The position numbers were made by a program, and so were the translations under genes. Shown piece after piece: positions 26,518-64,000 of a stretch of 64,000 bases of DNA. Below the pieces are notes generated by a model. That model did not search any database, was not told the DNA's origin, and worked only from the letters and a program-made list of their open reading frames with translations. Every line of letters starts with the position of its first letter. Position 1 is the stretch's first letter. Origin of the DNA: an uncultured bacterium (GTDB taxonomy: Bacteria > Fidelibacterota > Marinisomatia > Marinisomatales > TCS55); the NCBI GenBank assembly GCA_964466265.1, contig CAYXMX010000002.1, positions 15,340 to 79,339 of the forward strand, in the 5' to 3' direction.

Positions 26518-27900
26518 ATGAAACGATTATTCATGGTTGTTGCCATGACCTTTTTAACCATCATTAATCCAATTCGTCCACAAAGTGAGGCTGGAGCAAT
26601 CTTTTTGCTCATTTCCCCTGGTGCAAGAGCTGGTGGTATGGGGGAGGCTCAGGTGGCAGTGGCAGATGATGCATATGCTACTTTTTGGAACCCGGCAGGT
26701 CTTGCTTTTTTAAAGGGATCCGAAATGGCCCTTATGCATGTAAATTGGCTTCCAAACCTGGCGGACGACATGTATTATGAATTTTTCGCCTATCGTAAAC
26801 ATATACCATACTTAGGAACTGTTGGAGGCCATTTAATCTATTTGAACCTTGGTGAACAGATCAGAATGGGTGAATCTCCTGATGATTATTTGGGGACATT
26901 TACCAGTTACATGATGGCTTTATCTCTATCTTATAGTTCAATGTTAACTCGTAAAACCTCATTAGGAATTAATGCAAAAGTTTCCTACCAGCATTTAACA
27001 GAATTTGGTGCGGGTGGAGAAAAGGGAAAAGGAACATCAACAGATTTTGGCTTTGATATTGGCTATCTACATAAAGAATTCTTAAGTCCCAGATTGACGA
27101 TGGGAATGACCGTTACCAATATTGGTCCAAAGGTTTCTTTTATTGACCCCGCCCAAGCGGATCCACAACCGACCAACTTTACTCTGGGATTAAATTTTGC
27201 ATTGATTAAATCTCAGTATAATAGACTGAATCTGGTTTATGATGTTGACAAACTTTTGGTTGCTGCTTATCCAGATATGGATTGGGATGGGGATGGCTAC
27301 GTCGGCGGATTTGATGAATTTGGGCATAAATCAGATAAGAATGCCGGGTATAATAAAGATGGACAGCAAGAGACAGCTCACTCGGATCCTATTTACATAG
27401 GTATTTTTACATCGTGGGTAGATGATTGGTTGTTAGGCGGAGATATGGATATGATTGGTAGTACCAGCGATGAATACGACCATTTAATTGGTGGCTATAA
27501 GTGGGATGATCAGTCTGGAAACCCAGATCGCCCCGGTTGGGGGAATGGAAAAATCGAAAAAGATGAAGGCGAAATAATTCCTACAGACGGAAAGCCCGGT
27601 GACCCCGGATGGGGGCCTTATAATGAATTCGGCCAAAAGGAAGTAGGAAGTGCTAAAAGACGTACGATTAAAAATGAACTTGATAAACTGATCCATAATA
27701 TGGGGGTTGAGTACTGGTATGGCGAATATTTTGCCTTAAGGGCTGGTTATCTTTACGATAAAACGGGTAAAATAATGAACCCGACATTTGGTGTAGGATT
27801 AAGGTTTGCAAACTACGGATTTGATTTTGGATATATCTCAGGTGAACCTGATCACCCACTGGCCAATACCATGCGTTTTTCGTTGAATATGGAATTTTAA
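26518..27900 (+). CDS. PorV/PorQ-family outer-membrane beta-barrel with a large acidic insert
   Basis: Signal peptide. The family signature is GARAGGMGEAQVAVADDAYATFWNPAGLAF. C-terminal strands end in MRFSLNMEF (terminal Phe). An Asp/Gly-rich insert of about 150 aa spans residues about 245-392. Confidence 0.7.
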   Translation: MKRLFMVVAMTFLTIINPIRPQSEAGAIFLLISPGARAGGMGEAQVAVADDAYATFWNPAGLAFLKGSEMALMHVNWLPNLADDMYYEFFAYRKHIPYLGTVGGHLIYLNLGEQIRMGESPDDYLGTFTSYMMALSLSYSSMLTRKTSLGINAKVSYQHLTEFGAGGEKGKGTSTDFGFDIGYLHKEFLSPRLTMGMTVTNIGPKVSFIDPAQADPQPTNFTLGLNFALIKSQYNRLNLVYDVDKLLVAAYPDMDWDGDGYVGGFDEFGHKSDKNAGYNKDGQQETAHSDPIYIGIFTSWVDDWLLGGDMDMIGSTSDEYDHLIGGYKWDDQSGNPDRPGWGNGKIEKDEGEIIPTDGKPGDPGWGPYNEFGQKEVGSAKRRTIKNELDKLIHNMGVEYWYGEYFALRAGYLYDKTGKIMNPTFGVGLRFANYGFDFGYISGEPDHPLANTMRFSLNMEF

Positions 27901-27933: not shown

Positions 27934-30633
27934 ATGAAACATATATTCCCAATATTCATCATATTGATGATATGCATACCCCTATCTGGAGAAATAACAG
28001 GAGATATTGCAATAAAGGTTATCAGGGTTTCCTTCCTTGAAGATGACATAGAGGGCACAACTGGAAATGGAGATTATCTATATTCTTCAACAATTAGCGA
28101 GTGTGATCAATACACCGTTGACCCTCCACCCCATGATAGAGATTATTTCCAATCTCAATTAACTGCATTGGACCATTATTTTAGAGAAGTGTCTTATGGA
28201 AAGTTTGGCATTGATATAGATCAATCAGTGATTTACCCATCGGTCAATGAAGGCAGTTATCAATTATCCAATCAAATGAATTATTATCATCCATACAGTG
28301 AAGATAATCTTCATGAAAAGAGAATTACCTCTTTATTCGTCGAATCAGTTGAAAAAGCATATGATGATGATGGGATAGAATTTAATTCCCGTGATTTAGT
28401 TGTAGTAATCCATGCAGGGATTGGACAGGATTTTTCATTACCTTTTCTGGATCCTACACCCGAAGATATACCGTCTACGTATATTGATCCTGAAATGTTG
28501 TTGAATTACCATGAGGGACCTGTGGTTATTGGAAATTCCATCATTGAGCATGGAATCATACTACCGGAAACACAAAACCATTTATTATTTGATATCGCAA
28601 AGGACATGTTTGCCAGTTCGGAAACACCTTGTGAGTATCAGTTTGGTCTCACTGGTACATTTTCTCTCATGGTTGGGTTTGCAATCGGCCTTCCACCAAT
28701 GTGGAATGTTGAATCGGGAGAAAGCGGTATTGGTGTGTTTGGCTTGATGGACCAAGGGTCGAATAACGGAAGAGGATTAATTCCTGCACCACCGAATGCC
28801 TGGACACGGATTTATGCGGGGTGGGAAACACCCAGAGTTGTCAGACCTGAACTGGATGTTTATTTATCTTCAAGATCAGAAAATAATATTGTTCAGGTTA
28901 ATATTAATAATCGCGAATATTATTTAATTGAAAACAGAACAAACTGGCATAGAAATAAGGTTTCCATTGATTCATCTAGATTTCTGATTTATAATCAAAA
29001 CGGTAGAGATCGTTACCCACCCTTTGTTGAAGTACTATTCGATTCAGTCAACATTGAAATGGATACAAATGGTGTAGTAATATCTATCCCTGATTATGAT
29101 TTGGGGTTCAGTGCATCAGGCCTTTTAATCTGGCATATCGATGAAGACAGGATTGAGTTAGGGTTAAATACCTATTCAATAAATGGTGATAGAGAGAGTC
29201 GAGGGATAGACCTAGAAGAAGCAGATGGCGCACAGGATATAGGATATCCTAATATATTTTTATTTTCGGATCCGACAACTGGTTATTTTGGGGATATGTG
29301 GTTTCAAGGAAACCCTGAATATGTACGACTTTATCCAGATTATAAAGAGTTGCCCATCGAATTTGGCCCATTTACTTATCCAAATACAAAAAGCAATGAT
29401 GGTGCAACGACCTATTTAAGCATTAACCAAATTGGTATGCCTGGAGATACCATGTCTTTTTCGATTACGAATTCTTTACTTGTTAATGGACTTCCTGATA
29501 CTTCTCTACATATCGGATTGGTTTATGATTTCGACGATAATGGTATTAATGAAATAGTCGGAGGAATAGGAGAATTATGGGTTGGAGAAGAAATGGAATT
29601 AAGTAAGCGAACCACTTTCTACCAAACACCAAATGTAATCTATGATTTTTCAATAGGAACCTTTGATGGAGAAGACAAATTGGTAATATCTGAGAGGGAT
29701 GGATCATCTTCCGTCGTTTCCTATTTTTCATGGAATCCTGTCTCTAATATACTGGAATTGATTAATCAACAAACCATGAACAGCCCTTATATCTTGTTTA
29801 TTAATGAAGGAAATAATAGCCATCTATATTTAGAGAATCCCCAAGAAAGTGAATTAGATACTAAGGTGATTTATGAAGATAACTCCTTAGACAGTGTCTC
29901 AGGAATATCATGGGTTTCTCTTGCAGATATTGACTTAGACGGAAGCCCAGAATACGTATATAATAACGGAGCAGGTAAATTATCTGTAGAACATATGAAT
30001 GGTATTACTTTTTCAGGATTTCCCATGGAGGTGAGGAACAGTGGAAAAACGGCGCTAATAAAAAATATTATTGGTGACAGCCATCCTGAAATCATTATAC
30101 AAAATAGTGCCGGTGAAATCGTAATTATTAATTGGAAAGGGAATATAGAATATCGTTTAACTAATTATGGCAGCTTGGTTTGTTTAAGTGATTATAATGG
30201 GAGAAATGCAGTTGTTACTGAATCAGCAATCTGGGTTTTTAATTTAATCAGTGAAAATTTTGGGAATGAATGGACGTCTACTCATCATGATTTTGGTAAT
30301 TCGAGGACACTTCAATTACAGATTCCCAAACGAATACCAGATACGTCATTAATTGATAAAAAAAAGACGTATGCATACCCAAACCCAGCATATCGTGGGA
30401 ATGTAACTTTCCGAGTAGCAGTAGAATCGGCAGAAAATGTAGAAATTATAATATATGATTTTGCCGGATATTTTGTAAAACGATATAAGATGACTAATCT
30501 AGTTCCCGGAATTGTACATGAAAGGAATTGGAATATAGATAAAGTTGAATCCGGAGTATATTTTGTTAATGTGACTGCAACAAAAGGGACTGAAACGGAT
30601 CTAAAAATATTAAAAATCGGAATTATCAAATAG
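27934..30633 (+). CDS. T9SS-sorted secreted protein with FG-GAP/VCBS-like repeats (protease-like N-terminal region lacking HExxH)
   Basis: Signal peptide. The C-terminal 85 aa, YAYPNPAYRGNVTFRV...VEIIIYDFAGYFVKRY...GVYFVNVTATKGTETDLKILKIGIIK, match the T9SS type A sorting domain pattern. FG-GAP-like DFDDNGINEIVGG and ADIDLDGSPEYVY. GLLIWHIDE and GIDLEEADGAQD resemble InhA/M6-like proteins, but no HExxH is present. Confidence 0.7.
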   Translation: MKHIFPIFIILMICIPLSGEITGDIAIKVIRVSFLEDDIEGTTGNGDYLYSSTISECDQYTVDPPPHDRDYFQSQLTALDHYFREVSYGKFGIDIDQSVIYPSVNEGSYQLSNQMNYYHPYSEDNLHEKRITSLFVESVEKAYDDDGIEFNSRDLVVVIHAGIGQDFSLPFLDPTPEDIPSTYIDPEMLLNYHEGPVVIGNSIIEHGIILPETQNHLLFDIAKDMFASSETPCEYQFGLTGTFSLMVGFAIGLPPMWNVESGESGIGVFGLMDQGSNNGRGLIPAPPNAWTRIYAGWETPRVVRPELDVYLSSRSENNIVQVNINNREYYLIENRTNWHRNKVSIDSSRFLIYNQNGRDRYPPFVEVLFDSVNIEMDTNGVVISIPDYDLGFSASGLLIWHIDEDRIELGLNTYSINGDRESRGIDLEEADGAQDIGYPNIFLFSDPTTGYFGDMWFQGNPEYVRLYPDYKELPIEFGPFTYPNTKSNDGATTYLSINQIGMPGDTMSFSITNSLLVNGLPDTSLHIGLVYDFDDNGINEIVGGIGELWVGEEMELSKRTTFYQTPNVIYDFSIGTFDGEDKLVISERDGSSSVVSYFSWNPVSNILELINQQTMNSPYILFINEGNNSHLYLENPQESELDTKVIYEDNSLDSVSGISWVSLADIDLDGSPEYVYNNGAGKLSVEHMNGITFSGFPMEVRNSGKTALIKNIIGDSHPEIIIQNSAGEIVIINWKGNIEYRLTNYGSLVCLSDYNGRNAVVTESAIWVFNLISENFGNEWTSTHHDFGNSRTLQLQIPKRIPDTSLIDKKKTYAYPNPAYRGNVTFRVAVESAENVEIIIYDFAGYFVKRYKMTNLVPGIVHERNWNIDKVESGVYFVNVTATKGTETDLKILKIGIIK

Positions 30634-49546: not shown

Positions 49547-51598
49547 GTGCGCACATATTTAATTTTCATAGCTATCACCATCGTAATATCTTCTTGTGGA
49601 GATCCTCCGAGGAAAGTTGAAATTCTATGGGATCACTATGGGATTCCTCATATATATGCTCAAAATGTAAATGATCTTTTCTATGCCTATGGCTGGGCAC
49701 AGACCCATGCCCATGGTGATCTACTATTAAAGTTATATGGACAGGCTAGGGGAAAGGCTGCAGAATACTGGGGAGAAGAGTATCTGGAGAGCGATCAGTG
49801 GGTATGGACAAATGGAATTCCTGAAAGATCAGAGCAGTGGGCAAATGATCAATCTGAACCGTATAAGTCCATGTTGGAGAACTATATTGCTGGTATTAAT
49901 GATTATATAATAAAAAATCCACAGGACATTGATGATGCTTATAAAGTAATATTACCGATAACACTGACAGATGTTATGGCCCATGCGCAAAGGTTGTTGC
50001 ACTTTACATTTATTTTTAGTCAGGACGATTTAAAGGGCAGCGTAAAAAAGTGGGCCAACCCAAAAGGTTCAAATGCCTGGGCAATAGGTCCCGGTCGATC
50101 ATCTTCAGGACATGCAATGTTGCTGGCCAATCCTCATTTATTCTGGGGAGATATGTTTACGTGGTTTGAAATTCATCTCAACCTACCAGAGATGAATATT
50201 TATGGTGCCAGTTTAATCGGTTCTCCTGCATTAGGTATTATGTTTAATGAACATCTTGGATATACGCATACGGTTAATACTCATGACGGAGCTGACCTTT
50301 ATGAATTAGCCCTTCGGGATGGAGGCTATGAATTCGATGGTACAATAAAACCATTCCAAATTGATTCTGTTAATTTAAAAATACAAATGGGTGACTCACT
50401 CCGGACAGAGCTATTTATTATAAAAAATGCAATTCAAGGGCCAGTAGTTTATGAAGAAAATGAAAAAGCTCTTGCTTTAAGAATCGTGGCCTTGGATGCG
50501 AGTCAACTTTTCAAGGAACGGTGGGATATGGCTACTGCAACCAACCTTGAAGAGTTTGAGGCAAGTATAAAGAATCTTCAGACTCCTATGTTTACCGTTA
50601 TGTACGCTGATAAAGATGGTAATATTATGCATCTCTTTGGTGGACAAACTCCTAAAAGGCCGTCAGGAAATTTTAACTGGGCTGGAGTTGTTCCGGGGAA
50701 TACATCAATGACTCTTTGGAATAATATACATCCATACAATGAATTGCCCAGGATATTAAATCCTGAGAGTGGTTGGTTACAAAATGCTAACGATCCACCA
50801 TGGACTACCACATTCCCAGAGGAAATTGACGTAACCCATTATCCACCATATATGGCACCACGTCGAATGGGATTTCGTGCACAACGTTCAGCCAGAATGT
50901 TGAGCGAAGATGCCAGCATCACCTATGATGAAATGATTCAGTACAAATTTTCTACAAGAATGGAGCTGGCAGATCGCATCTTGGATGATCTTTTTGATGC
51001 AGCATCGATGGCGAGGGATAAGGATATTCAGGATGCAATACGTGTTTTAAAGCGTTGGGATAGAACAGCTGATAATGCCAGCCGTGGGAGTGTATTATTT
51101 AAGTATTGGGTGGATGCAATGAATTTTCCTGACGATTTTGCGTTACAATGGAATGAGAGAAGTCCCCTTTTATTACCCGATGGTTTAAAAGATAGAACCA
51201 TGGCTGTCCATCGCCTCTTTGGTGCCGCAAAGGATGTGAAAGAAAGATATGGCCGATTGGATGTATTTTGGGGAGAAGTATTTCGTCTGCAGCGAGATAG
51301 TCTGGATCTACCGGCAAATGGGGCTCCGGGAGACCCCTATGGTGTATTTCGCTCATCGTATTTTCGTCCTATAAAGGATCATAGAGAATCCCTCATTGCT
51401 GGAGATTCTTATGTGGCTGCCATTGAATTTGGGGATTCTATTAAAGCTGAAGGAGTCCTTGGTTACGGAAATTTTAGTCAAAAAGGATCTCCACATAGAA
51501 CGGATCAGTTAAAACTGTATTCTGAAAAAAAGTTAAGACCGATTTTATTTTATCGCAAAGATGTGGAAGCGAATACAATGGAAAGAACGGAGTTTTAA
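49547..51598 (+). CDS. penicillin/AHL/cephalosporin-acylase family Ntn hydrolase
   Basis: GTG start; lipoprotein-like ISSCG. N-terminal WDHYGIPHIYAQNVNDLFYAYGWAQTHAHGDLLL. The predicted autoprocessing nucleophile sits in GSNAWAIGP, followed by LLANPHL. Confidence 0.8.
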   Translation: MRTYLIFIAITIVISSCGDPPRKVEILWDHYGIPHIYAQNVNDLFYAYGWAQTHAHGDLLLKLYGQARGKAAEYWGEEYLESDQWVWTNGIPERSEQWANDQSEPYKSMLENYIAGINDYIIKNPQDIDDAYKVILPITLTDVMAHAQRLLHFTFIFSQDDLKGSVKKWANPKGSNAWAIGPGRSSSGHAMLLANPHLFWGDMFTWFEIHLNLPEMNIYGASLIGSPALGIMFNEHLGYTHTVNTHDGADLYELALRDGGYEFDGTIKPFQIDSVNLKIQMGDSLRTELFIIKNAIQGPVVYEENEKALALRIVALDASQLFKERWDMATATNLEEFEASIKNLQTPMFTVMYADKDGNIMHLFGGQTPKRPSGNFNWAGVVPGNTSMTLWNNIHPYNELPRILNPESGWLQNANDPPWTTTFPEEIDVTHYPPYMAPRRMGFRAQRSARMLSEDASITYDEMIQYKFSTRMELADRILDDLFDAASMARDKDIQDAIRVLKRWDRTADNASRGSVLFKYWVDAMNFPDDFALQWNERSPLLLPDGLKDRTMAVHRLFGAAKDVKERYGRLDVFWGEVFRLQRDSLDLPANGAPGDPYGVFRSSYFRPIKDHRESLIAGDSYVAAIEFGDSIKAEGVLGYGNFSQKGSPHRTDQLKLYSEKKLRPILFYRKDVEANTMERTEF

Positions 51599-52336: not shown

Positions 52337-53056
52337 ATGACTCAAGCACACGAAATTCTCGAACCTTTCACTGCCCTCTGGTGGGAGACCATTCTATGGT
52401 CGATCGGAATTATATGGGGACTTCTTTATTTTGCAAAGAAGATGACCCCAAAGCAGATCTCATATCTAATTATTTTCTCCGGTGTTGTGTTGAACGCCAG
52501 AACCTTGTTATTCCAACCGTATATGGTTTATACCCATCAATGGGATATTTATAATAGTTTACCCCTTCATTTATGCGGATTGTCTGCTATTATTTCCGGT
52601 GTGATCATGTTTTATCGAAAGCAATGGCTATACGAACTTCTTTATTTCTGGGGAATCCCGGGAGCTTTCCACTCACTGATTACACCTGAATTTACCCATG
52701 GGACCAGAGGACTGTTTTTTATAGAATATTATATTGCCCATGGGGGCATTATTTTTAGTGCTTTGTTTTGCACGTTAATCCTTGGATTTAAACCGTCAAA
52801 AGGATCATGGTGGAGAGTTTTTCTTTGGACTCAATTACTCTTACCTGTTATTGGTGGGTTCAACTGGCTAATCGGAGCAAATTATATGTATCTCTGTGAG
52901 CCACCTATTGTTAGCAATCCCTTTGTAATAGGGGATTTTCCAGAACATTTAATTGGATTAGAGATTGCTGGATTACTGCATTTTGCGCTGGTATATTTAC
53001 CCTTTGGATTGAGATATCGAAATGAATCAAAAAGTACAGGGACTCCACTTATTTGA
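52337..53056 (+). CDS. 7-TM integral membrane protein, tandem paralog 1 (YwaF/TP0381-like, TIGR02206-type; family name tentative)
   Basis: Shares SLPLHLCGLS, YFWGIPGAFHSLITPEF and GANYMYLCEPP...NPF blocks with the next two genes. Confidence 0.8.
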   Translation: MTQAHEILEPFTALWWETILWSIGIIWGLLYFAKKMTPKQISYLIIFSGVVLNARTLLFQPYMVYTHQWDIYNSLPLHLCGLSAIISGVIMFYRKQWLYELLYFWGIPGAFHSLITPEFTHGTRGLFFIEYYIAHGGIIFSALFCTLILGFKPSKGSWWRVFLWTQLLLPVIGGFNWLIGANYMYLCEPPIVSNPFVIGDFPEHLIGLEIAGLLHFALVYLPFGLRYRNESKSTGTPLI

Positions 53057-53732
53057 CAACCTCCATGTAATCTATTTGGTTACATGGTTAATTATTTGGT
53101 TTACGGTTCCTCTGGTTGGGAAAAAGTATCTCAACAAGCATCAGCAGAAATGGTTTGTTTGGATCATGATTGTTTTCATGGTAGGGCAGGAAATGGTAGA
53201 TTATTGGAACCGAACTCAATTTCGCCATTTATCCTGGGACTTAGACTTACCACTACATTTATGTCATTTATCTCTCATTTTTTCCGTTTATATTCTATTT
53301 AGAAGGAGTCAATTTCTTTTCGAAATTACTTACTTTTGGGGATTGGGTGGTGCCCTTCAAACCATGCTGACACCAGATATGACTAATTTTGATAATTATT
53401 TGGCTATTTTTCTCATGTATGCGCACCACGCAATGATCATTTTAACCTGTCTCTGGTTGGTCGTTGTGGAGGGATATCGTACCCGGTCTGGAGCGATCAA
53501 GCGTACCTTTATTTTTACATATATTGTCATTTGGCCAGTATGGCTGGTGGATTGGATTACTGGGGGAAATTATATGTATTTGATGGAGAGGCCTCCCACA
53601 GAAAGTCCACTTGTATTTGGGAATTGGCCTTGGTACATCATTAATATTCAGGTAGTAGCATTTCTTCTGTTTAACATCATTAATTTGCCCATGATTCTCT
53701 TAAGAAAAAAAGAATCTGTTACATCATATTGA
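53022..53732 (+). CDS. 7-TM integral membrane protein, tandem paralog 2
   Basis: LPLHLCHLS, YFWGLGGALQTMLTPDM and GGNYMYLMERPPTESPLVFGNWPWY. Its start overlaps paralog 1 by 35 nt. Confidence 0.8.
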   Translation: MNQKVQGLHLFDNLHVIYLVTWLIIWFTVPLVGKKYLNKHQQKWFVWIMIVFMVGQEMVDYWNRTQFRHLSWDLDLPLHLCHLSLIFSVYILFRRSQFLFEITYFWGLGGALQTMLTPDMTNFDNYLAIFLMYAHHAMIILTCLWLVVVEGYRTRSGAIKRTFIFTYIVIWPVWLVDWITGGNYMYLMERPPTESPLVFGNWPWYIINIQVVAFLLFNIINLPMILLRKKESVTSY

Positions 53733-54435
53733 ATCAATTTATTCCTCCTGAAGTCTATGGCTCTCTCCATAATATTTATATGCTATCGGAATTGTTTTAT
53801 GGATTATTATTCCTTTTCTTGGAAAAAAATACTTAAATCATAAACATCGAAGGTTAATATCCTTTGTTTTGATTTTCCTCACATTAGGTCAGGAAATTAT
53901 TAATGAATCCGTTCTGTTTTATCAGGGTTTATGGAAACTCTCGGTGAATTTACCGGTTCATTTATGTGGATTTTCCCTTTTTCTGATATCCTGGGTTTTG
54001 GCCACAAAAAAACAAGCTGCCTTTGAATTGGCATATTTCTGGGGAATTGCTGGTGCATCCCAGGCCATATTATCTCCGGATTTGAATGGGATTGGAAATC
54101 CCATGGGCATTTTTATATATTTCTTCTCTCACTCCATTATTGTATTAGATGTGGTTTGGCTGATATATGTCGAAGGAATGAGATTAAGAAAACGTTCATT
54201 ATTGGCTGTCATAATACTGACCAATGGTTTTGCCTTCCTGGTTTCAATTTTGAATAATCTTATCGGAGGAAATTATTGGTATTTATGTTATAAGCCTCAC
54301 TCCAACAGTCCCTTTCTGTATGGTGAATGGCCTTTCTATCTACTAAGTATCGAATTAGCCGGAATTTTTCTTATGGGTTTGATTTATTTACCCTGGATGC
54401 CATTTTTCAGTCATACTTCATCCATAGAAAATTAA
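53729..54435 (+). pseudogene. tandem paralog 3, apparently disrupted by a 1-nt frameshift near 53782 (or N-terminally truncated from TTG 53869)
   Basis: The frame starting at TTG 53729 reads (M)NQFIPPEVYGSLHNIYM, homologous to the paralog 2 N-terminus MNQKVQGLHLFDNLHVIYL. Homology then continues one base back as AIGIVLWIIIPFLGKKYLNHKH (compare TWLIIWFTVPLVGKKYLNKHQ). The rest (LPVHLCGFS, YFWGIAGASQAILSPDL, GGNYWYLCYKP) is intact. Confidence 0.6.
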
Positions 54436-54560: not shown

Positions 54561-55586
54561 ATGACAACACTCTTACTTTACTTTTTCCTCGCCTTGGGTG
54601 TATCCTTTCTCTGTTCCTTATTGGAATCGGTATTATTATCTATGACACGCTCCCACATTGCTGTTTTAGTTAAGGAGGACCACATTTCCGGGCGGTTACT
54701 TGAAAAGCTCAAGAAGAACATCAATCGTCCACTAGCAGCTATTTTATCCCTGAATACCATCGCAAATACAGTGGGTGCTGCGGGGGTTGGGGCGGTTACC
54801 TATAATTTATACGGAAGTAAGTGGGTAGCGGTTACATCAGGTTTATTAACCATGTCAATTCTGATCTTTTCTGAAATTATTCCAAAAACAATTGGAGCTC
54901 ATTACTGGAGACATATTGTATCCCCTTCTGCTTATTTAATCAGGTTTTTAATGGTTTTAATGTATCCATTTGTCATCTTACTGGAATCATTGTCTAATTG
55001 GCTGGAACCGGCTATCAAACAGGATGTTGTCACAAAGGAAGATGTGATCGCCATGGCGGAAATGGGGGAAGACGAAGGGACAATCGAAGAAGACGAAAGT
55101 ACCATAATAGAAAATATTCTTAGGCTGGATAATGTAACTGCAGAAGAAGTAATGACTCCTCGAACGGTTGTTTTTGCATTACAGAAAGATATGACAGTGA
55201 AGGAAGCTTTGGATAAATATCCCATTATTACCTTTTCTAGGATTCCTGTTTATGGTAGAGATATGGAAGATATTGTTGGATTAACCCGCCGGTATGTATT
55301 ACTCAAGAGTAAAGCAGAAGACCAATTTGACTCTACGATGGAAGAATTATCAAATCCGGTCCATGTTGTTTCAGAAAAAGATTCAGTGGGAACTATCCTG
55401 GATGAATTTGTCCGTCGCCGGGAGCATTTATTTATTGTTAAGGACGAGTTTGGACAATTTGCTGGTATTATTACCCTTGAGGATGCCATTGAAACATTGC
55501 TTGGTGTCGAAATCGTAGATGAGATGGATTCGGTTGTTGATATGCGGAAATTAGCTGTTAGTAAAAGTAAAGAACAAAATAAATAA
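54561..55586 (+). CDS. CNNM/CorC-type transporter (DUF21 membrane domain plus CBS pair, no CorC_HlyC tail)
   Basis: The N-terminal 4-TM DUF21 domain ends in SEIIPKTIGA. Two CBS motifs follow (VMTPRTVVFAL...IPVYGRDMEDIVGL and VHVVSEKDSVGTILDEF...LFIVKDEFGQFAGIITLEDAIETLLG). Confidence 0.82.
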   Translation: MTTLLLYFFLALGVSFLCSLLESVLLSMTRSHIAVLVKEDHISGRLLEKLKKNINRPLAAILSLNTIANTVGAAGVGAVTYNLYGSKWVAVTSGLLTMSILIFSEIIPKTIGAHYWRHIVSPSAYLIRFLMVLMYPFVILLESLSNWLEPAIKQDVVTKEDVIAMAEMGEDEGTIEEDESTIIENILRLDNVTAEEVMTPRTVVFALQKDMTVKEALDKYPIITFSRIPVYGRDMEDIVGLTRRYVLLKSKAEDQFDSTMEELSNPVHVVSEKDSVGTILDEFVRRREHLFIVKDEFGQFAGIITLEDAIETLLGVEIVDEMDSVVDMRKLAVSKSKEQNK

Positions 55587-55636: not shown

Positions 55637-58600
55637 ATGAAGCGTGCCCTCTGTGTCTTCTCTTTAGTGATCGTTGGTGTCCTTGCATTTGCAGCGACAC
55701 CTACAGTTCGGTTTTACCTAACTGAACTGGACTTTATAAGTAGTCAACCTGTTCCTGAGTCAGAGACACAATTTAGATCACATATAAAAGCAACGTTTGA
55801 TGAAGAAAATAATATTATTAAAAAAACTTATATTGATCCAAATGGGAAGATTAATCAGTCAGAAATTTTTACATATGATTCTACCCATACCTTAATATAT
55901 AAAGATATTTATCTCTCAGGGACACAACTTATCAAACAACTTCTCTTTGGGATGGAAGAAAAGGCAGTTGATTATGTGGAATATGTATATGGCGTTGATA
56001 CGGTAAAAGACTGGACCGACCGGTTCTCAATCCTGGATTACAATCAGCTCTCCCAACTGGTCAATCACGCATTTTTTGATGTAAATGCATTCCAATATGG
56101 ATTCACACATTTTGAATATGATTCACTAGGATATTTATCGAAAGAAGAATGGGTTCGAGAACCCTCAGGGAAAACCATGAGACTCTGGAATCATTTCTTT
56201 GACCCCGCTACTCAACTAACACGAATTATGCAATATGATTCAAATGGTGTGTTGGTTCAGGATTTCCAGTTAAGTCCTGATGGAACTGAATCCATATTCT
56301 GGTTCAAAAACTTGACGGACTCTCTATTTATTAACCATACTTTAATTTCTTTTTCTAATGAAAGTTACTTGGATTGGGGAAAGGTAATATGGATTAGAGT
56401 GGATACAACGGATGCATGTTGTGACAGTATCGAATATCTATTGCCAAAACAGTTTTTGGTAAAAGGACATTTTACTGTGAATACAGGTTTAGATTCTTTT
56501 TTAGTTGACAGTGCTACATACGACATTGTTTTTACCGGAAAGGGTAGTAGTGGCTATGATGCAACAGAACGAAGGGTTAATGGTATTCAATATGATGTTT
56601 CATCTCCCTTATTTGAATTATTTACAAGACAGTTTATCAATAAGCCAATCATTTCTTTTCGTCAGTCAGAACCGACTATTTCAGCTGTTTTAGTATGGAT
56701 GGAAATGGACGACACAACCCAAATAGTGACCTCTATTTTTGATTCGACGGATTTGACCTGGGCTGGAAAGGGAATGTTTACCCCATCCCAGCAACCCAGT
56801 TTAAAAGATAGCATATATTATTCAGTAAGAATTTATGGGACAGACAGAGCAGGGAATCAATCAAATCCCATCGAAGTTGATTCAGTATTTTTTGATGTTC
56901 GGGCTCCTTCCCTAATGATTTCATCTCCTTTAACCGGAGAATTCAGAAATAATCTATCTCTCATATTTAGTCTCAACGAGCCATTACAATCATGGAAAGT
57001 ATCTGTCAAGTCGGTCGGAGGTGAACCGGATCCTAATTCTCCTTACCTATTAGAAATGGATTCATCTCTTTTTGATTTATCTGAAATAGAAAAAGATTTA
57101 GCCGATGAATTCCAACTAAACGATGGAACCATCTATCAATTGATTTTGTCAGGTATTGACCGGGCTGGCAATGTTTCAAGAGCATTGATAGTAGACTCAG
57201 TTACTTATGATATTTCTCCACCTGTTTTAACGACCATTTATCCGGCAACAGGTGCTGCAATCAATCAAACAACAATATCATACAGTATCAATGAACCGCT
57301 GAGAGCTGGTGAATTCCGCTGGGAGCAAACAGAGGGCACCATGGATTCATCAGCTCCACATATTATAGTATTGATGGAAGAGGAGTTGTCTCTGGGAGAT
57401 CATATTAATATTCTTCTGGAGAATCAGACCGAATTGACTGATGGCGCTTCCTATTCACTTTTATTTGTTGGTCAGGATAAAGCAGGTAACGATGGAATTG
57501 CTCCAAACCATATAAATATTTTGTATGATGCTGTCCCACCCAAATTTACTCAGGTTAAACCCCGGCGAGGTTCAGCAATAAACCAAGGGCATGTTTCTTA
57601 CACATTATCGGAAAACACCAAAGAGGGAACGTTTACTTGGAAGTGGATAGGTGGAATAAAAGATCCAATATCCGTCCATACGGCTCAACTGATGAATGAT
57701 GAGAAAAACGCTGGTGTACATGATTCTCTCTTACTATCCCAATCTCCAGAATTGGTAGACGGAGGAATTTATTCCATCGAATTGAATGCGACTGACCGTG
57801 CGGGAAATGATGCAGAAACAATTACAATAGAGAATATCTTATATGATTTTACTCCTCCGACCATAACCATTATTTACCCTGTTTCTATGTCATTCTTACC
57901 TCATAAAAAATGGTCATATTCACTTTCAGAAACATTAGAAGAAGGATCATTTTTTATAAGAAGGACCGGTGGTGCAGAAGATAGAAATTCTCCTTACCGT
58001 ATTGTATTAAATAATAAAGAGAAGTCAGCTGGCGACCACGATGATATCCAGTTGATGTTAATGCCTGATATTGTTGAAGGAACCATTTATGAATTATCTT
58101 TCGCTGGGAGGGATCGGGCAAATAACACAACAGAGTCATTTAGCCTACCAAATATACAATATGATTTTACACCTCCTGTTGTTTCTATTTTGGATTTAAG
58201 CGATAGTACAGACGTGAACCATCAATTAATCAGTTTTGAATTCAGTGAAAAATTAAAAGAGGCATGGATCACTTGGGAATACACTGGGGGAGTGAATGAT
58301 CCCAATGTCATTCATAAACAACCCCTGATTGATGGTGAACTAAATAAAGGAATTCATTCTAATACTCAAATATTAAATTCACCTCAATTGGTCGATGGTT
58401 CAGTATACAAGATTTCCATATTTGGGTTCGACCGGGCGGGAAATAAATCCAATGTGTCCGTTGTAAATAAGATCCGTTATGATGTTACTGCCCCCATGGT
58501 CAATGTAACTTATCCAATCACCCAAACCTATGTTTCATCTCCAGCTATCAGTTTTAACTTGAGTGAAAAACTTTTTTATGGAAAAATTATCTATACTCAA

Positions 58601-61600
58601 ACAGAAGGTACATTTGATCCGCTATCTCCCCAGGAATTTATCATGTGGAGAGAAATTCGTGCCGATGGATCTTATGCAAATGTGTTTTACCAAGATGGTC
58701 CTGAATTAGTCCAAGGGGCGATCTATACTATTTCTATTGAAGGAAGTGACCGTGCAGGAAATATTGCTTCCTTCGCCAGCGTGTCGGGTATTGTTTATGA
58801 TGCTATCCCACCTGTTGTATCTGTTTGGACAGCCGACTCCTCTTTATTCGTTAATCACAATCGTATTACTTACTCGATCAGTGAGGACATTAAAAGCGGG
58901 ACTATTATGTGGAAGGCAATGGGAGGGGAGAATGATCCATCTTCACCCCATATTATTAATTTGATAGCTGACGAATTGAAAGAAAGTAATCTTGAAAATT
59001 ATACGCTGATCAATGCCCCCAGTTTACACGATGGAACTCTATACTCAATTTCAATCTTTGTCAAGGATTTTGCCGGGAATACCAGCGAGACAGCAAAAAT
59101 GGATAATATCTTATTCGATGTTACTCCACCCATTTTGAAAATTGTTTCTCCAGGTGAAAATTATATTACTAAAGGAAGTGAACTGATTTTTTCAATTTCA
59201 GAAGATCTTTTAAATGGTAAAATAACCTGGCAGGGAAATAATGAAAATCTCATGGAAATATCAACCAGTTGGGATTTGCCGGATACTGTATTGAAACAGG
59301 GGCAATATATCTTAAATGAATATTATTATCCGCCTCTTGTTGACGGAGGTGTGTATTCAGTAACCATTACTGGCGAAGACCCTTCTGGAAATATTGCTGC
59401 TCCATCCAATATTTCCAATTACAGGATTGATAGAACATCACCTGTTTTTACTTCCCTTAAGCCTGAATCAGATTCATTTGTAAACCTCGATCATTTGGGA
59501 TATACATTGAGTGAGGAACTCCTCTCCGGGTCTGTCTTAATAAAATGGGATCTGGATCAAATAATAGTGCCACTAAAAAATGAAGAATTATTAGAAGGGG
59601 AGCATCCACTCAATCCATTATTGGCAAAATCGGAGTGGAGAAACGGTCGAAAATATACTATCGAATTTTCAGGAATTGATTTTGCCGGAAATGCTTCAGA
59701 TACATCAAAGATTGAGAATTTGGTTTACGATATTTCTCCACCGGTATTAGCAGTTCTACATCCAAATAATGATTCTTATGTACGATCATCATTGGTATCA
59801 TTTTCAGTTAACGAACAACTATTAGAAGAAGAATTGATATGGTTATCCGAATCTGGATCTCGGGTTGTAGAAAAACTAATTGATTCGAGTTTAACCGTTG
59901 GAGAACACTCATTAGAGCATATGTTAAGTTTGGTTGAAAAAATACCTTATTCTGTTTATATACAAGGGGTGGATCTGGCTGGAAATACAGGTAGATCACC
60001 TATTATAAATAATATACAATATGATACAACAAAACCAGAATTAGTCATATTGTTACCCTTAGAGAATTCAATAATTAATTATAAGGAGGTCACTTATCAT
60101 TTAAACGAGGATTTGAAAGAAGGAAAAATAATTTGGCAAAATTTAAATGGTTTAGATAAAAATCCGATCCATGAAATAATTCTAAAAAATAATGAACTGA
60201 TGGCCGGCGATCATTCGGATATTTCTTTCAATCAAAAACCGGAATTAGTTGAAAATGCTTCGTACATGGTAAGATTAGAGGGGACAGACTTGGCCGGAAA
60301 TAAAAACATCGCTAAACCGGTCCAAAAGTTTACTTATGATTCTTCTCCCCCAGTATTCTCGAATATTTCACTGAAATCAGAATCAATAATTAATCGTGTT
60401 AATCTTGAGTTTACTCTTAGCGAAGACATCCTTTCTGGTAAAGTAACATTTAGCAGAGTGGGAGGTGCATTGGATGATAAAAGTCCCCATTTTGTGAATT
60501 TGAGCGGTAGTAAACTGAAGCATGGGACGCAAGGAGGTGAGTTACCACTTGAATTGATTCCGTTAATCAACGGAGCTGTTTACAATATTGAATTTTATGG
60601 AGTAGATTTTGCTAAAAATGAATCTGGAGAAACATTAATTGAAAATGTTGCATTTGATAATAAGCCACCGGTTCTGTATATCAAAACCCCTCAAAACCAG
60701 TCATCGACCAATCAACTTTCCATTGATTATAGTATTAGTGAAGACATGGCCTCTGGCAGATTACTTATTGATATTGAATCCGGCAGTCAGCTAATCATTA
60801 ACCTGGATGAAAATGAAAGAAAATTGGGTGAATATTTTCAATTCCTCCCACAGGAGATTGGTAGATTAAATGATGGCATAACACTGAATATGACCTTGGA
60901 AGGAAGCGATGCTGCAGGAAATATGGCTACACCTTACACTGTCGAAAATGTCAGGTACGACACCACCCATCCAAAAGTCAATATAACGCTTCCTCTGAAC
61001 AATGACTTCGTGAACAATAATTCAATTTCACTGGAAATCAGTGAAAATTTAGCAGAAGGAAGATTGATCATTACTCAAACAGACGGTATTTTGGATAATC
61101 GTTCACCTCTAACCATCCCCTTTCAAACAAATGAAATGTTGCAGGGAGATTATAATCATATTCAATTGTCCATGGCTGTACCGCTGCTAAATGGCTCTAT
61201 TTATTCCTATGAATTTATTGGAAAGGATTTTGCGGGAAACGATGTTATCTCACAACCTGTTACCCATATTGTTTATGATAATGAACCTCCTGTAGTATCA
61301 TTGAGTAAACCTATCGACTCTGAGCAAATTAAAAATACAGAAATAAGCTACATATTATCTGATCATTTATCCCGGGGAGTAATTATTTTCGAAAGAACTG
61401 GGGGAACAACTGATCCTCATTCACCTCATATTATCAATCTGGAAGGATCCCAATTGCGACAAGGATCTCATATGGATGTTGAAATGAGAATAGTAGACTT
61501 GCTTGCAGATGGAGGAAAATATTCCATATCTATCCGAGGGTGGGATAAAGCGGGGAATGAATCACTCATTTCTTCTGTTAACAATATTCTTTTTGATGTC

Positions 61601-64000
61601 CTCCCGCCCATTTTGACTATTCACAAACCGATGAATGGGGATGCAATACATGAACCGATTGTCACCTTGGAAATGAGTGAAAAGCTGGCAGCAGGTACAT
61701 TAACATTTAAACAAATTGGTGGTGTAATTGACCCGGGGAGTCCCTATGAAATATCATTATTGTCACCCTACAATAGTCAGGGTATTTTTAAAGACATCAA
61801 TTTATCCAATGATGTTACTTTAATGGAGGGGGCTGTTTATTCCATTATATTCAAGGCACAAGATCCGGCCGGAAATATTTCTTTACCGGTGACTGTTTCG
61901 AATATCAGTTATGATATCACCCCTCCCAAGATTATTATATCGGATCCCGTGGAGAATTCACATTTAAATACGTTTTCAGTCTCATTTTCTATTGATGAGA
62001 ATTTGGTCATAGGTCAACTGGAAGTAAAGCGGACGCTGGGTAGCAAAGATGAAGGGAGTCCTCATTCTTTTAACTTAAAAGATAATCTTCTCATGGTGGG
62101 CACCCATACGATGGCAGTTCACGAACTTACAGAACTGATAAGTGGATCAGAGTATATGATTCGGTTAAGCGGGATGGATCGAGCAGGGAACGAAGCCATT
62201 TCTACGGAAGTTGGCCAATTAATATACGATGTTGATCCTCCCATAATGGAGATTATATCACCCTTGACCGGGACAAAAGTAAATCATTCTGTAATTGGGT
62301 TTTCTATTAATGAATCTTTGCAGAATTTAAAAATAATCTGGGTGGATGAAAATGGGCTCGAAGTTACCAGAAATCTCCCGGAAAAATATTATATCCCTCA
62401 AAGGTTTACTCAAGTTGTTTTGAATGATAAACCCCAGTTAGTGAGTGGATCAACTTACTCTATAATCTTGGAGGGAACCGATCTAGCAAGGAATACATCC
62501 GAGACCGAAATCAATCAAATAGAATTTGATAATACTCCACCCCAGTTTACTTTAGCTGATCCATTATCCGGCGATTTCATCAACCGTACTTATATTCAAT
62601 TTGAGTCCAGTGAACCTCTAGAATCTGGTCAGCTTATTTGGAAAGCTGTCGGGGGAATTCCCGACCCACTCAGTCCTCGAGAAGTAGAGTTGGTTAATGA
62701 CGAGCTAATTTACTTCATGGTTTCATCTGGTGACTTAGCTAACCAAATGCCATTGCAAGATGGAACAGTGTATCAAATCATCATAGCCGGTAGAGACCTT
62801 GCAGAAAATGAAAGCCAAATGGTCCTGGCCGACCAGGTTCATTATGATATCACCGCACCTGTGCTTCAGCTAATATCACCAGAAAATAACACATGGGTCA
62901 ATAATGATGATGTGCAGTTTAGCATCAGTGAAAATCTTCAATCTGGCAAAATAACCTGGGTGAGGAAATCAGGTGAAAATGATCCTGTCATTCATACGAT
63001 TGATTTAAAGAGCAATCAATGGGTAGCGGGAACCCACTCTACTTCGGGGCTGGATAATGTACCTTTGATCAGTGGTGTCCAATATCAGATTGAAATAACT
63101 GGAATAGATTTAGCAGGGAACCCTTCGACAAATACTGATTTCAAAATCATTTATTTTGACACTACAGCACCAACGTTAGTTATTAATCAACCAACAGTTG
63201 GTTCATATATTAATCACAAAAATATTTCTTTCTCAGCATCAGAACCTTTAAAATCAGGATCTTTGCAGTTAATAGATCAGAAGTCAGGTGTCATACAAGA
63301 AGTGCTCCTTTCCGGTGAAGAATTGACTATTCTGGATTGGCCAAATAAACCATTAGCTCGTTCATTACCCATCAAAGACGGGGAGATTTATACATATCAA
63401 TTGATTGGAACTGATCTTGCCGGAAATAGAGGTATGTCTGTGAAAGTGCCAGATGTCACGTATGATATATCGAAACCTGTTTTTAAAATAACCAGACCCA
63501 GAGAAAATTATGTAAATATTGAAGGAATTACTTCCTATACTCTCAATGAAGACCTTGTCTCTGGAACGGAAACATGGGTACGTACCGGCGGAAAAATTCT
63601 TGGACCTGTTGCGACGGCCAACATCCCCCAAGTCCTTGAATTAGTGGGGGAGGAGTTACTGGCGGGCGATCACGTTAATATTCAATTTGCCAACGCTCCA
63701 GAATTAAATGCAACGACGAAATATAAGCTTACATTGCAGGGAATAGATAAAGCGGGTAATGAGAGTCTCACCGTCTCAGTAGATGGAGTAGAATTTATTC
63801 CTGATTTAAGGGGAAACTGGTTATTTAAGGGAGCCATCATGACAGTCGTCTGGACGTTTGATCCTGATGAAGGAGTCGACGATCAGTCGACTGGAACATT
63901 CTCCCAAGGAATGCAAATGGGAACTAAGATTAGTAACCAGGAATTCGGTCGATATTCGATTAATTATTCAAAGGTGCCTTGGGAAATGACATATACAATG
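55637..64000 (+). CDS. giant secreted repeat protein, 5' portion (at least 2788 codons; continues beyond the window)
   Basis: ATG 55637 and signal peptide MKRALCVFSLVIVGVLAFAATP. I hand-translated 55637-59470 and 63782-64000 in this frame and found no stop. The (Y/F)D-x-x-PP repeat motif stays in this frame at 23 sites up to 63461. The ORF is absent from the track only because it has no stop in the window. Confidence 0.88.
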   Translation, partial: MKRALCVFSLVIVGVLAFAATPTVRFYLTELDFISSQPVPESETQFRSHIKATFDEENNIIKKTYIDPNGKINQSEIFTYDSTHTLIYKDIYLSGTQLIKQLLFGMEEKAVDYVEYVYGVDTVKDWTDRFSILDYNQLSQLVNHAFFDVNAFQYGFTHFEYDSLGYLSKEEWVREPSGKTMRLWNHFFDPATQLTRIMQYDSNGVLVQDFQLSPDGTESIFWFKNLTDSLFINHTLISFSNESYLDWGKVIWIRVDTTDACCDSIEYLLPKQFLVKGHFTVNTGLDSFLVDSATYDIVFTGKGSSGYDATERRVNGIQYDVSSPLFELFTRQFINKPIISFRQSEPTISAVLVWMEMDDTTQIVTSIFDSTDLTWAGKGMFTPSQQPSLKDSIYYSVRIYGTDRAGNQSNPIEVDSVFFDVRAPSLMISSPLTGEFRNNLSLIFSLNEPLQSWKVSVKSVGGEPDPNSPYLLEMDSSLFDLSEIEKDLADEFQLNDGTIYQLILSGIDRAGNVSRALIVDSVTYDISPPVLTTIYPATGAAINQTTISYSINEPLRAGEFRWEQTEGTMDSSAPHIIVLMEEELSLGDHINILLENQTELTDGASYSLLFVGQDKAGNDGIAPNHINILYDAVPPKFTQVKPRRGSAINQGHVSYTLSENTKEGTFTWKWIGGIKDPISVHTAQLMNDEKNAGVHDSLLLSQSPELVDGGIYSIELNATDRAGNDAETITIENILYDFTPPTITIIYPVSMSFLPHKKWSYSLSETLEEGSFFIRRTGGAEDRNSPYRIVLNNKEKSAGDHDDIQLMLMPDIVEGTIYELSFAGRDRANNTTESFSLPNIQYDFTPPVVSILDLSDSTDVNHQLISFEFSEKLKEAWITWEYTGGVNDPNVIHKQPLIDGELNKGIHSNTQILNSPQLVDGSVYKISIFGFDRAGNKSNVSVVNKIRYDVTAPMVNVTYPITQTYVSSPAISFNLSEKLFYGKIIYTQTEGTFDPLSPQEFIMWREIRADGSYANVFYQDGPELVQGAIYTISIEGSDRAGNIASFASVSGIVYDAIPPVVSVWTADSSLFVNHNRITYSISEDIKSGTIMWKAMGGENDPSSPHIINLIADELKESNLENYTLINAPSLHDGTLYSISIFVKDFAGNTSETAKMDNILFDVTPPILKIVSPGENYITKGSELIFSISEDLLNGKITWQGNNENLMEISTSWDLPDTVLKQGQYILNEYYYPPLVDGGVYSVTITGEDPSGNIAAPSNISNYRIDRTSPVFTSLKPESDSFVNLDHLGYTLSEELLSGSVLIKWDLDQIIVPLKNEELLEGEHPLNPLLAKSEWRNGRKYTIEFSGIDFAGNASDTSKIENLVYDISPPVLAVLHPNNDSYVRSSLVSFSVNEQLLEEELIWLSESGSRVVEKLIDSSLTVGEHSLEHMLSLVEKIPYSVYIQGVDLAGNTGRSPIINNIQYDTTKPELVILLPLENSIINYKEVTYHLNEDLKEGKIIWQNLNGLDKNPIHEIILKNNELMAGDHSDISFNQKPELVENASYMVRLEGTDLAGNKNIAKPVQKFTYDSSPPVFSNISLKSESIINRVNLEFTLSEDILSGKVTFSRVGGALDDKSPHFVNLSGSKLKHGTQGGELPLELIPLINGAVYNIEFYGVDFAKNESGETLIENVAFDNKPPVLYIKTPQNQSSTNQLSIDYSISEDMASGRLLIDIESGSQLIINLDENERKLGEYFQFLPQEIGRLNDGITLNMTLEGSDAAGNMATPYTVENVRYDTTHPKVNITLPLNNDFVNNNSISLEISENLAEGRLIITQTDGILDNRSPLTIPFQTNEMLQGDYNHIQLSMAVPLLNGSIYSYEFIGKDFAGNDVISQPVTHIVYDNEPPVVSLSKPIDSEQIKNTEISYILSDHLSRGVIIFERTGGTTDPHSPHIINLEGSQLRQGSHMDVEMRIVDLLADGGKYSISIRGWDKAGNESLISSVNNILFDVLPPILTIHKPMNGDAIHEPIVTLEMSEKLAAGTLTFKQIGGVIDPGSPYEISLLSPYNSQGIFKDINLSNDVTLMEGAVYSIIFKAQDPAGNISLPVTVSNISYDITPPKIIISDPVENSHLNTFSVSFSIDENLVIGQLEVKRTLGSKDEGSPHSFNLKDNLLMVGTHTMAVHELTELISGSEYMIRLSGMDRAGNEAISTEVGQLIYDVDPPIMEIISPLTGTKVNHSVIGFSINESLQNLKIIWVDENGLEVTRNLPEKYYIPQRFTQVVLNDKPQLVSGSTYSIILEGTDLARNTSETEINQIEFDNTPPQFTLADPLSGDFINRTYIQFESSEPLESGQLIWKAVGGIPDPLSPREVELVNDELIYFMVSSGDLANQMPLQDGTVYQIIIAGRDLAENESQMVLADQVHYDITAPVLQLISPENNTWVNNDDVQFSISENLQSGKITWVRKSGENDPVIHTIDLKSNQWVAGTHSTSGLDNVPLISGVQYQIEITGIDLAGNPSTNTDFKIIYFDTTAPTLVINQPTVGSYINHKNISFSASEPLKSGSLQLIDQKSGVIQEVLLSGEELTILDWPNKPLARSLPIKDGEIYTYQLIGTDLAGNRGMSVKVPDVTYDISKPVFKITRPRENYVNIEGITSYTLNEDLVSGTETWVRTGGKILGPVATANIPQVLELVGEELLAGDHVNIQFANAPELNATTKYKLTLQGIDKAGNESLTVSVDGVEFIPDLRGNWLFKGAIMTVVWTFDPDEGVDDQSTGTFSQGMQMGTKISNQEFGRYSINYSKVPWEMTYTM
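56591..63790 (+). repeat. 23 tandem diverged coding repeats (modal 318 nt / 106 aa) inside the giant ORF, Ig-like (SbsA/Big_5-like) by motif
   Basis: Motif starts: 56591, 56891, 57206, 57524, 57842, 58160, 58478, 58796, 59114, 59426, 59726, 60020, 60335, 60653, 60956, 61274, 61592, 61910, 62225, 62525, 62843, 63155, 63461. Each unit starts YD.TPP...I..P and ends G.D.AGN. Confidence 0.85.

Follow-up and report, generated by a model that had tools for sequence, protein, structure and literature searches.

The 64,000-nucleotide (nt) stretch of DNA analysed here (the window; contig CAYXMX010000002.1 of assembly GCA_964466265.1, from an uncultured bacterium of the Fidelibacterota) ends within a giant gene whose product is probably a Sec-exported, acidic fibre protein, in which a stalk of immunoglobulin (Ig)-like domains, fixed in length and probably stiffened by Ca2+, presents a lipocalin-like domain at its tip. 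From its N-terminus, the protein consists of a signal peptide, an RHS/YD-like module of ~195 amino acids (aa), 24 Ig/FN3-like sandwiches, and a basic eight-strand lipocalin-like barrel. It belongs to a known kind, the giant BIg-repeat fibre proteins, and does not overturn current understanding; it is unusual in that unit number and unit lengths have stayed constant over deep divergence, in its terminal domains, and in carrying no recognised signal for export or anchoring other than the Sec peptide. Marinimicrobia (Fidelibacterota, SAR406) rank with the most abundant bacteria in the dark ocean, and next to nothing is known about their cell surface; the only isolate in culture is Fidelibacter multiformis. 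Of their conserved envelope-type proteins, the giant protein is the largest. No paper on it turned up in literature searches, and its homologs, where the databases name them, are called only “Ig-like domain-containing” or “hypothetical”.

The gene (55637..64000, forward strand, as are all parts of it given below) lies in an open frame that extends from 55622 past the end of the window, with a probable ATG start at 55637 and a GGAG just 5' of it. The full product (P0001, recovered as a 100%-identical full-length protein) comprises 2,831 aa, the last 44 of which are missing from the window. A mature protein of ~313 kDa with an isoelectric point (pI) of 4.57 was computed from the composition; it has 2 cysteines in 2,812 residues. 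The repeat array is acidic as well (pI 4.5), and the pI values of the orthologs range from 4.15 to 4.69. An acidic, nearly Cys-free array is what would be expected of an extracytoplasmic rod of the Ca2+ type.

Units 1–23 of the array, tandem Ig/FN3-like domains of 98–111 aa, occupy 56591..63793, as delimited by motif searches, a hidden Markov model (HMM) and the structural model. An earlier sequence-only reading had listed 23 unit starts, and motif searches reproduce each of them exactly where it was reported; the example unit at 58160–58477 reads as quoted, and 11 of the 22 spacings indeed measure 106 aa (318 nt), the remaining ones 98–105 aa. The “strict 106-aa period” of that reading applies to half of the spacings and is thus modal, not strict. 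Its count of 23, while correct for the units listed, missed a degenerate unit upstream (unit 0, aa 215–318, 56279..56590). An HMM built from units 1–11 alone recovered all 12 later units with 60–89 bits each and matched none of 200 shuffled control sequences; it also detected unit 0 (26 bits, E 4.5e-8), and the unit HMM found unit 0 in every ortholog. The array therefore has 24 units. Unit 0 lacks the YD-x-TPP and D-x-AGN motifs, and both cysteines of the mature protein sit in it, side by side (DACCDS).

Neighbouring units had been described as sharing little nucleotide identity, which agrees with pairwise averages of 43% nucleotide and 29% amino-acid identity. Third-codon positions of unit pairs are nearly random, with 32.6% identity as compared to 28.8% expected from composition. 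Tandem Repeats Finder, run on the DNA, reported no repeat, so that the repeat is visible at the protein level only. There, D2, P6, D91 and N95 are invariant in 23/23 units of the unit alignment.

A full-length homolog search returned 84 cluster representatives, nearly all of them 2,785–2,861 or 3,019–3,074 aa long, and the named homologs all derive from metagenome-assembled genomes of Marinimicrobia, Neomarinimicrobiota, Fidelibacterota or the FCB group. Scanning GTDB, with one genome per species, for the signature of unit 16 gave 35 loci, and every named one belongs to the same four groupings. Judged by these searches, the giant protein is specific to Marinimicrobia. Among the complete family members (n = 84 in the search sets taken together; complete meaning that both terminal domains are present), 71–73 have 24 units, while 26 units were counted in seven, 21 in three, and 28 in one. 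Unit lengths are specific to position: spacings six to eight measure 104–107 aa, and unit 11 is always followed by a spacing of 98–99 aa. Both the number of units and the length of the unit at each position are fixed in the main clade.

The units also keep their identity between species. Positional orthology, meaning that the best match of a unit falls on the same position in an ortholog (chance about 1 in 24), holds for 24/24 units in an ortholog at 54% identity, for 15/24 at 37% identity, and still for 12/24 at 32% identity. Synonymous sites are saturated between units, and the ratio of nonsynonymous to synonymous substitution rates (dN/dS) was therefore taken between close ortholog pairs, where it amounts to 0.09–0.20. 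Positional orthology and low dN/dS together indicate that the array is ancient and that purifying selection acts on it, as the sequence-only reading had proposed, and also that its units have not been homogenised; positional orthology likewise bears out its view that the array is neither a recent amplification nor an assembly artefact. Constancy of repeat number contrasts with the copy-number variability usual for repeat adhesins, which makes the family well suited for studying length constraint in bacterial fibres.

An AlphaFold2 model of units 16–17, computed from 35 aligned sequences, has a predicted local distance difference test score (pLDDT) of 96.5 and a predicted template modelling score (pTM) of 0.79. 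It shows seven strands per unit, in the order A-B-C-C'-E-F-G; each unit, as modelled, is an Ig/FN3-like β-sandwich (E-set superfamily fold), and the pTM of the two-unit model suggests a defined inter-domain orientation. Foldseek retrieved 112 PDB matches at E ≤0.001, all of the tandem Ig/FN3 type, headed by BIg50–52 of SiiE (E 1e-6); next come the grappling-hook protein GhpA, FN3 tandems, an RTX-adhesin extender, and Bap.

The segment W-x3-GG-x2-DP-x-SPH, previously taken for a distinct core embedded in the unit and assigned to no family, is placed by the model within strand C, the C-C' hairpin and strand C', and the idea of a separate core is thus abandoned. In unit 16, the segment (FERTGGTTDPHSPH, 61388..61429) takes up the latter half of strand C and continues through the C-C' loop to residue one of strand C' according to the model secondary structure (strand 34–44, loop 45–51, strand 52–55). 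W/F39...G43-G44 end strand C, x-x-D-P-x-S-P forms the C-C' loop, and His52 starts strand C'. Across 71 orthologs, the hairpin segment proves optional and position-specific: it is strong in units 2–8, 12–19 and 21, and missing or degenerate at units 0, 1, 9, 10, 11, 20 and 22. Depending on position and ortholog, His52 is exchanged for Tyr or Gln, and Tyr or Phe can take the place of His66. This pattern suggests that the residues serve in packing and are not indispensable metal ligands; an obligate metal site built on His at DP-x-SPH was rejected, both residues being replaceable. The residues conserved to ≥90% in units 1–23 of 32 non-redundant orthologs are D2, P6, P13, E30, Y83, D91, A93 and N95. 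As read from this alignment, the conserved core of the unit is D2, P6, P13, E30, Y83 and D91-x-A-G-N95, and not W-x3-GG-x2-DP-x-SPH.

Unit 16 (61274–61591) is the most conserved unit, with ten position-specific invariant residues, and its A-B loop motif S-x-P-x-D-x-E-x-IK is present in 35/35 GTDB species loci. It may be a place, midway along the rod, where a specific interaction occurs.

The closest structural relative points to a role of the conserved acidic residues. In SiiE, the interface type I Ca2+ site is formed by D43, D97 and D117, the motif D97-x-A-G-N101 links two types of Ca2+ sites, and removal of Ca2+ results in kinked molecules (PMC6272769). The unit of the giant protein carries D-x-A-G-N in the F-G loop and aligns to three SiiE domains in a profile alignment. 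An inter-domain Ca2+ site might be formed by D2 in the linker of the next unit, E30 in the B-C loop, and D91-x-A-G-N95 in the F-G loop, the proposed equivalents of SiiE D117, D43 and D97-x-A-G-N101, respectively; this candidate site would lie at one pole, because the B-C loop, the F-G loop and the incoming linker share a pole in the seven-strand sandwich. Such sites would give the rod its rigidity. The GG-x2-DP-x-SPH hairpin, presumably at the C-terminal pole and directed towards the next domain, probably tunes the junction, and units that lack it may be more flexible joints. Assuming 3.3–4 nm per domain, as in SiiE, the array would act as a rigid stalk with a set length of ~80–100 nm. The terminal barrel, which probably binds a ligand or a surface, would thereby be kept at a fixed spacing from the base.

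SiiE of Salmonella enterica (53 BIg domains, of which BIg50–52 are represented by 2yn3/2yn5) is also a linear acidic rod of tandem Ig-like domains of ~100 aa, its F-G loop likewise carries D-x-A-G-N, both proteins have conserved acidic residues in the linker and around the B-C loop, and SiiE is the top match of the units in both the Foldseek and the PDB profile search. Identity to the unit is nevertheless 16–18% only, with the sequence match limited to the F-G region; the PDB sequence search with the unit profile gave no match beyond the Y-x-I-x3-D-x-AGN region of SiiE. Moreover, SiiE is secreted by the type I route and has a C-terminal signal and a coiled-coil N-terminus, whereas the giant protein starts with a Sec signal peptide and an RHS-like module and terminates in a lipocalin-like barrel; Ca2+ binding by the giant protein is a prediction.

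The best structural matches, SiiE, Bap and the RTX-adhesin extender, are adhesins, and a repeat stalk with a distinct terminal binding domain is the overall design of fibrillar adhesins such as RTX adhesins, Bap and GhpA. The protein might thus be a classical fibrillar adhesin that attaches cells to particles or to other cells by means of a generic, length-tolerant stalk, its constant unit number being a historical accident. In line with this, the same unit serves as a spacer in unrelated proteins (with FG-GAP, CHB_HEX_C_1, LVIVD or Glucodextran_B domains), and outside unit 16 there are few position-specific invariant residues. We nonetheless consider this account rather doubtful, though not to be dismissed lightly. 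Unit number and per-position length are kept in those 71–73 of the 84 complete members, down to 32% identity; positional orthology leaves no sign of unit shuffling or homogenisation; and the anchor or secretion signals typical of the known adhesin classes were not found. What sets the giant protein apart from fibrillar adhesins is the fixed repeat number, positional orthology across a phylum-level clade, the lipocalin-like tip, and the lack of a recognised anchor or secretion signal.

With respect to domain families, the whole protein exceeds the Pfam cut-offs for Big_3_3 (PF13750, 118.1 bits), Big_13 (PF19077, 72 bits) and InlK_D3 (PF18981, 47 bits), and the orthologs carry the same three families as precomputed annotations. 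Big_13 and InlK_D3 cover only the F-G hairpin region of the unit. For Big_3_3 (gathering cut-off 27 bits), five stretches of the whole protein pass, while none of the 23 single units reaches the cut-off; membership in Big_3_3 holds for the array, but not cleanly for a single unit. Indeed, no single unit met any Pfam gathering cut-off, the best E-values being 0.003–0.006. The profile of the unit matches 6,873 of 1.84 billion cluster representatives at E ≤0.001, 242 of them at E ≤1e-30. Some of the matching proteins contain two to six units as spacers beside the domains named above, and several, such as P0202, P0153 and P0131, possess the unit, yet have no Pfam Ig match. By these profile comparisons, the unit forms a divergent subfamily of Ig-like domains that no existing model represents; annotation would benefit from a dedicated one. 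The unit has undergone a separate, large expansion in P0085 (3,876 aa, on an ENA contig of 22.5 kb), which has 37–38 copies, 16 of them with a hairpin of the GG-x2-D-x3-PH type, and lacks the N- and C-terminal domains of the giant family.

The suggestion that the units are SbsA-type, Big_5-like modules was right in that they are bacterial Ig-like domains; they are nearer to Big_3_3, Big_13 and InlK_D3, and structurally to the BIg domains of SiiE. The unit has the superfamily and the PP...D-x-AGN frame in common with Big_5/SbsA-type domains, but the giant protein is devoid of an S-layer anchoring domain. Big_5 (PF13205, gathering cut-off 23.6 bits) matches four of the 23 units at E <1, with a best E-value of 0.0041 and a score of 15.7 bits for unit 3; it is absent from the whole-protein Pfam matches and remains below threshold in every unit. 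This weak similarity is one of the observations that could be cited in favour of a structural component of the envelope, i.e., an S-layer-like protein, a sheath protein, or a ruler in the periplasm or envelope, which assembles laterally, possibly together with the TMEM164-type and CNNM/CBS products encoded upstream (see below). The fixed length, and a Sec signal with no signal for translocation across the outer membrane, would also fit. Besides the failure of every unit to reach the Big_5 threshold, Pfam searches found no SLH or other S-layer anchoring domain, and a rod of ~90 nm is too long to span the periplasm; we therefore regard an envelope component of this kind as improbable.

The N-terminus of the giant protein comprises a putative Sec-type signal peptide (MKRALCVFSLVIVGVLAFA, 55637..55693), a hydrophobic segment read from the sequence. 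Hydrophobic N-termini are present in every aligned ortholog, and the ortholog alignment shows no conserved Cys that would indicate a lipobox. It is followed by a module conserved among the orthologs (aa 20–214, 55694..56278) with YD/RHS-like hairpin motifs. This module has no Pfam or NCBIfam match, and the PDB sequence search with its profile returned zero matches; RHS_repeat matches it weakly in 5 of 13 orthologs (best E 1.1e-5). Inverse autotransporters of the intimin/invasin type carry an outer-membrane β-barrel ahead of their Ig-like array; the corresponding part of the giant protein is this module, whose lack of Pfam and PDB sequence matches speaks neither for nor against such a barrel.

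At the opposite end, a conserved domain of 112 aa (aa 2720–2831) begins directly after unit 23, where a switch to a different domain had been noted; only its start lies inside the window (63794..64000). It is basic (pI 9.2) and is predicted by AlphaFold2 to fold into an eight-strand barrel (pLDDT 89.7). Foldseek matches include the pallilysin Tp0751 (template modelling (TM) score 0.59), the Bacteroides lipocalin-family structure 4gzv, and fatty acid-binding proteins, with TM scores of 0.55–0.59. Tp0751 and Bacteroides BACOVA_00364 share the eight-strand lipocalin-like barrel with the C-terminus of the giant protein, but at 12–16% identity there is no sequence relationship. The 112 aa gave no match to Pfam, NCBIfam or PDB sequences, and a homolog search returned only short fragments of the giant-protein family; the domain was found solely at the end of members of this family.

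A C-terminal sorting domain of the type IX secretion system (T9SS), either Por_Secre_tail (PF18962/TIGR04183) or type B, was not detected on the true C-terminal 112–120 aa, while the same PF18962 search does detect one in the gene at 27934–30633. The latter codes for an 899-aa protein and adjoins a porV gene (26518–27900); a PorZ-like β-propeller match is located at 3570–5201. Since PorV, a PorZ-like protein and a sorted cargo are encoded, the organism has a T9SS, though the giant protein lacks a sorting domain. One might suppose that the giant protein is nevertheless a T9SS cargo, or a gliding adhesin of the SprB/RemA kind, with the CNNM/CBS protein encoded upstream acting as GldE: the lineage falls in the FCB group, these T9SS genes lie in the window, GldE is the best NCBIfam model for the upstream gene, and GhpA, a T9SS substrate, is among the structural matches. 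This is highly improbable in view of the absence of a type A or B sorting domain and of a C-terminus that is an eight-strand barrel, not a seven-strand sandwich. The upstream gene, moreover, was rejected as gldE, since it scores 132 bits against a TIGR03520 cut-off of 376; its protein, 341 aa in all, matches only positions 3–320 of the 408-position model, and the domains found in it are CNNM and CBS alone, whereas GldE has a CorC_HlyC C-terminal domain. A type I secretion substrate of the SiiE/RTX kind was rejected as well, given the N-terminal Sec-type signal peptide and a C-terminus that forms a folded barrel and shows no RTX/T1SS match.

Several points weigh against a Ca2+-stiffened stalk with a lipocalin-like tip. 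Unit number is not universal, as minor lineages with 21, 26 or 28 units exist. The proposed position of the Ca2+ site is deduced from the topology of the seven-strand sandwich, as is the presumed contact of the hairpin with the next domain. The terminal barrel resembles lipocalins by fold only (E ~0.03, TM 0.55–0.59). Beyond the Sec peptide, the searches for export or anchoring signals (T9SS, T1SS/RTX, lipobox) were negative, and surface exposure is assumed.

Immediately upstream of the giant gene, at a distance of 50 bp and on the same strand, a gene for a CNNM/CBS membrane protein is located (54561..55586; Pfam CNNM 119 bits, plus CBS). It is preceded by three tandem genes, also on the forward strand (52337..54435), for TMEM164-related integral-membrane acyltransferases (Pfam TMEM164 134–148 bits; NCBIfam TIGR02206 118–128 bits, as compared to a cut-off of 75). 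The CNNM/CBS gene occurs upstream in 27 of 29 related loci, in 22 of them directly adjacent, and 26 of the 29 have TMEM164-type genes upstream. A conserved gene in a neighbourhood conserved across the phylum would suit the envelope component considered above; conserved gene order may, however, be simple synteny, and the 26-unit lineage lacks both the TMEM164 and the CNNM/CBS neighbours.

Taken further, the fixed architecture could be read as a phylum-wide molecular ruler, that is, a rod whose 24 Ig-like modules could not be interchanged and whose function would depend on its exact length. It would work together with the upstream acyltransferases and the CNNM protein and be exported by a route unexplained by known sorting signals. 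We consider this unlikely. If it were true, the rod might determine the spacing at which an outer layer lies, or keep a barrel that binds lipids or ligands ~90 nm away from the SAR406 cell.

Further genes in the vicinity were noted. A gene of the penicillin-amidase family (683 aa, Pfam 412 bits) lies upstream at 49547–51598, and likewise in a distant ortholog locus (L007). DUF4295-containing genes are located 3' of the giant gene in L007 (16667–17272) and in two other loci (L001, 12176–12682; L006, 16854–17183); the counterpart position in the present contig lies past the end of the 64-kb window. Downstream of the giant gene in a locus of the 26-unit lineage (L005, 19065–20504), a gene for an IS605 OrfB/Cas12f-like TnpB protein is accompanied by phage-like primase genes, which suggests that a mobile element inserted near the giant gene in this lineage.

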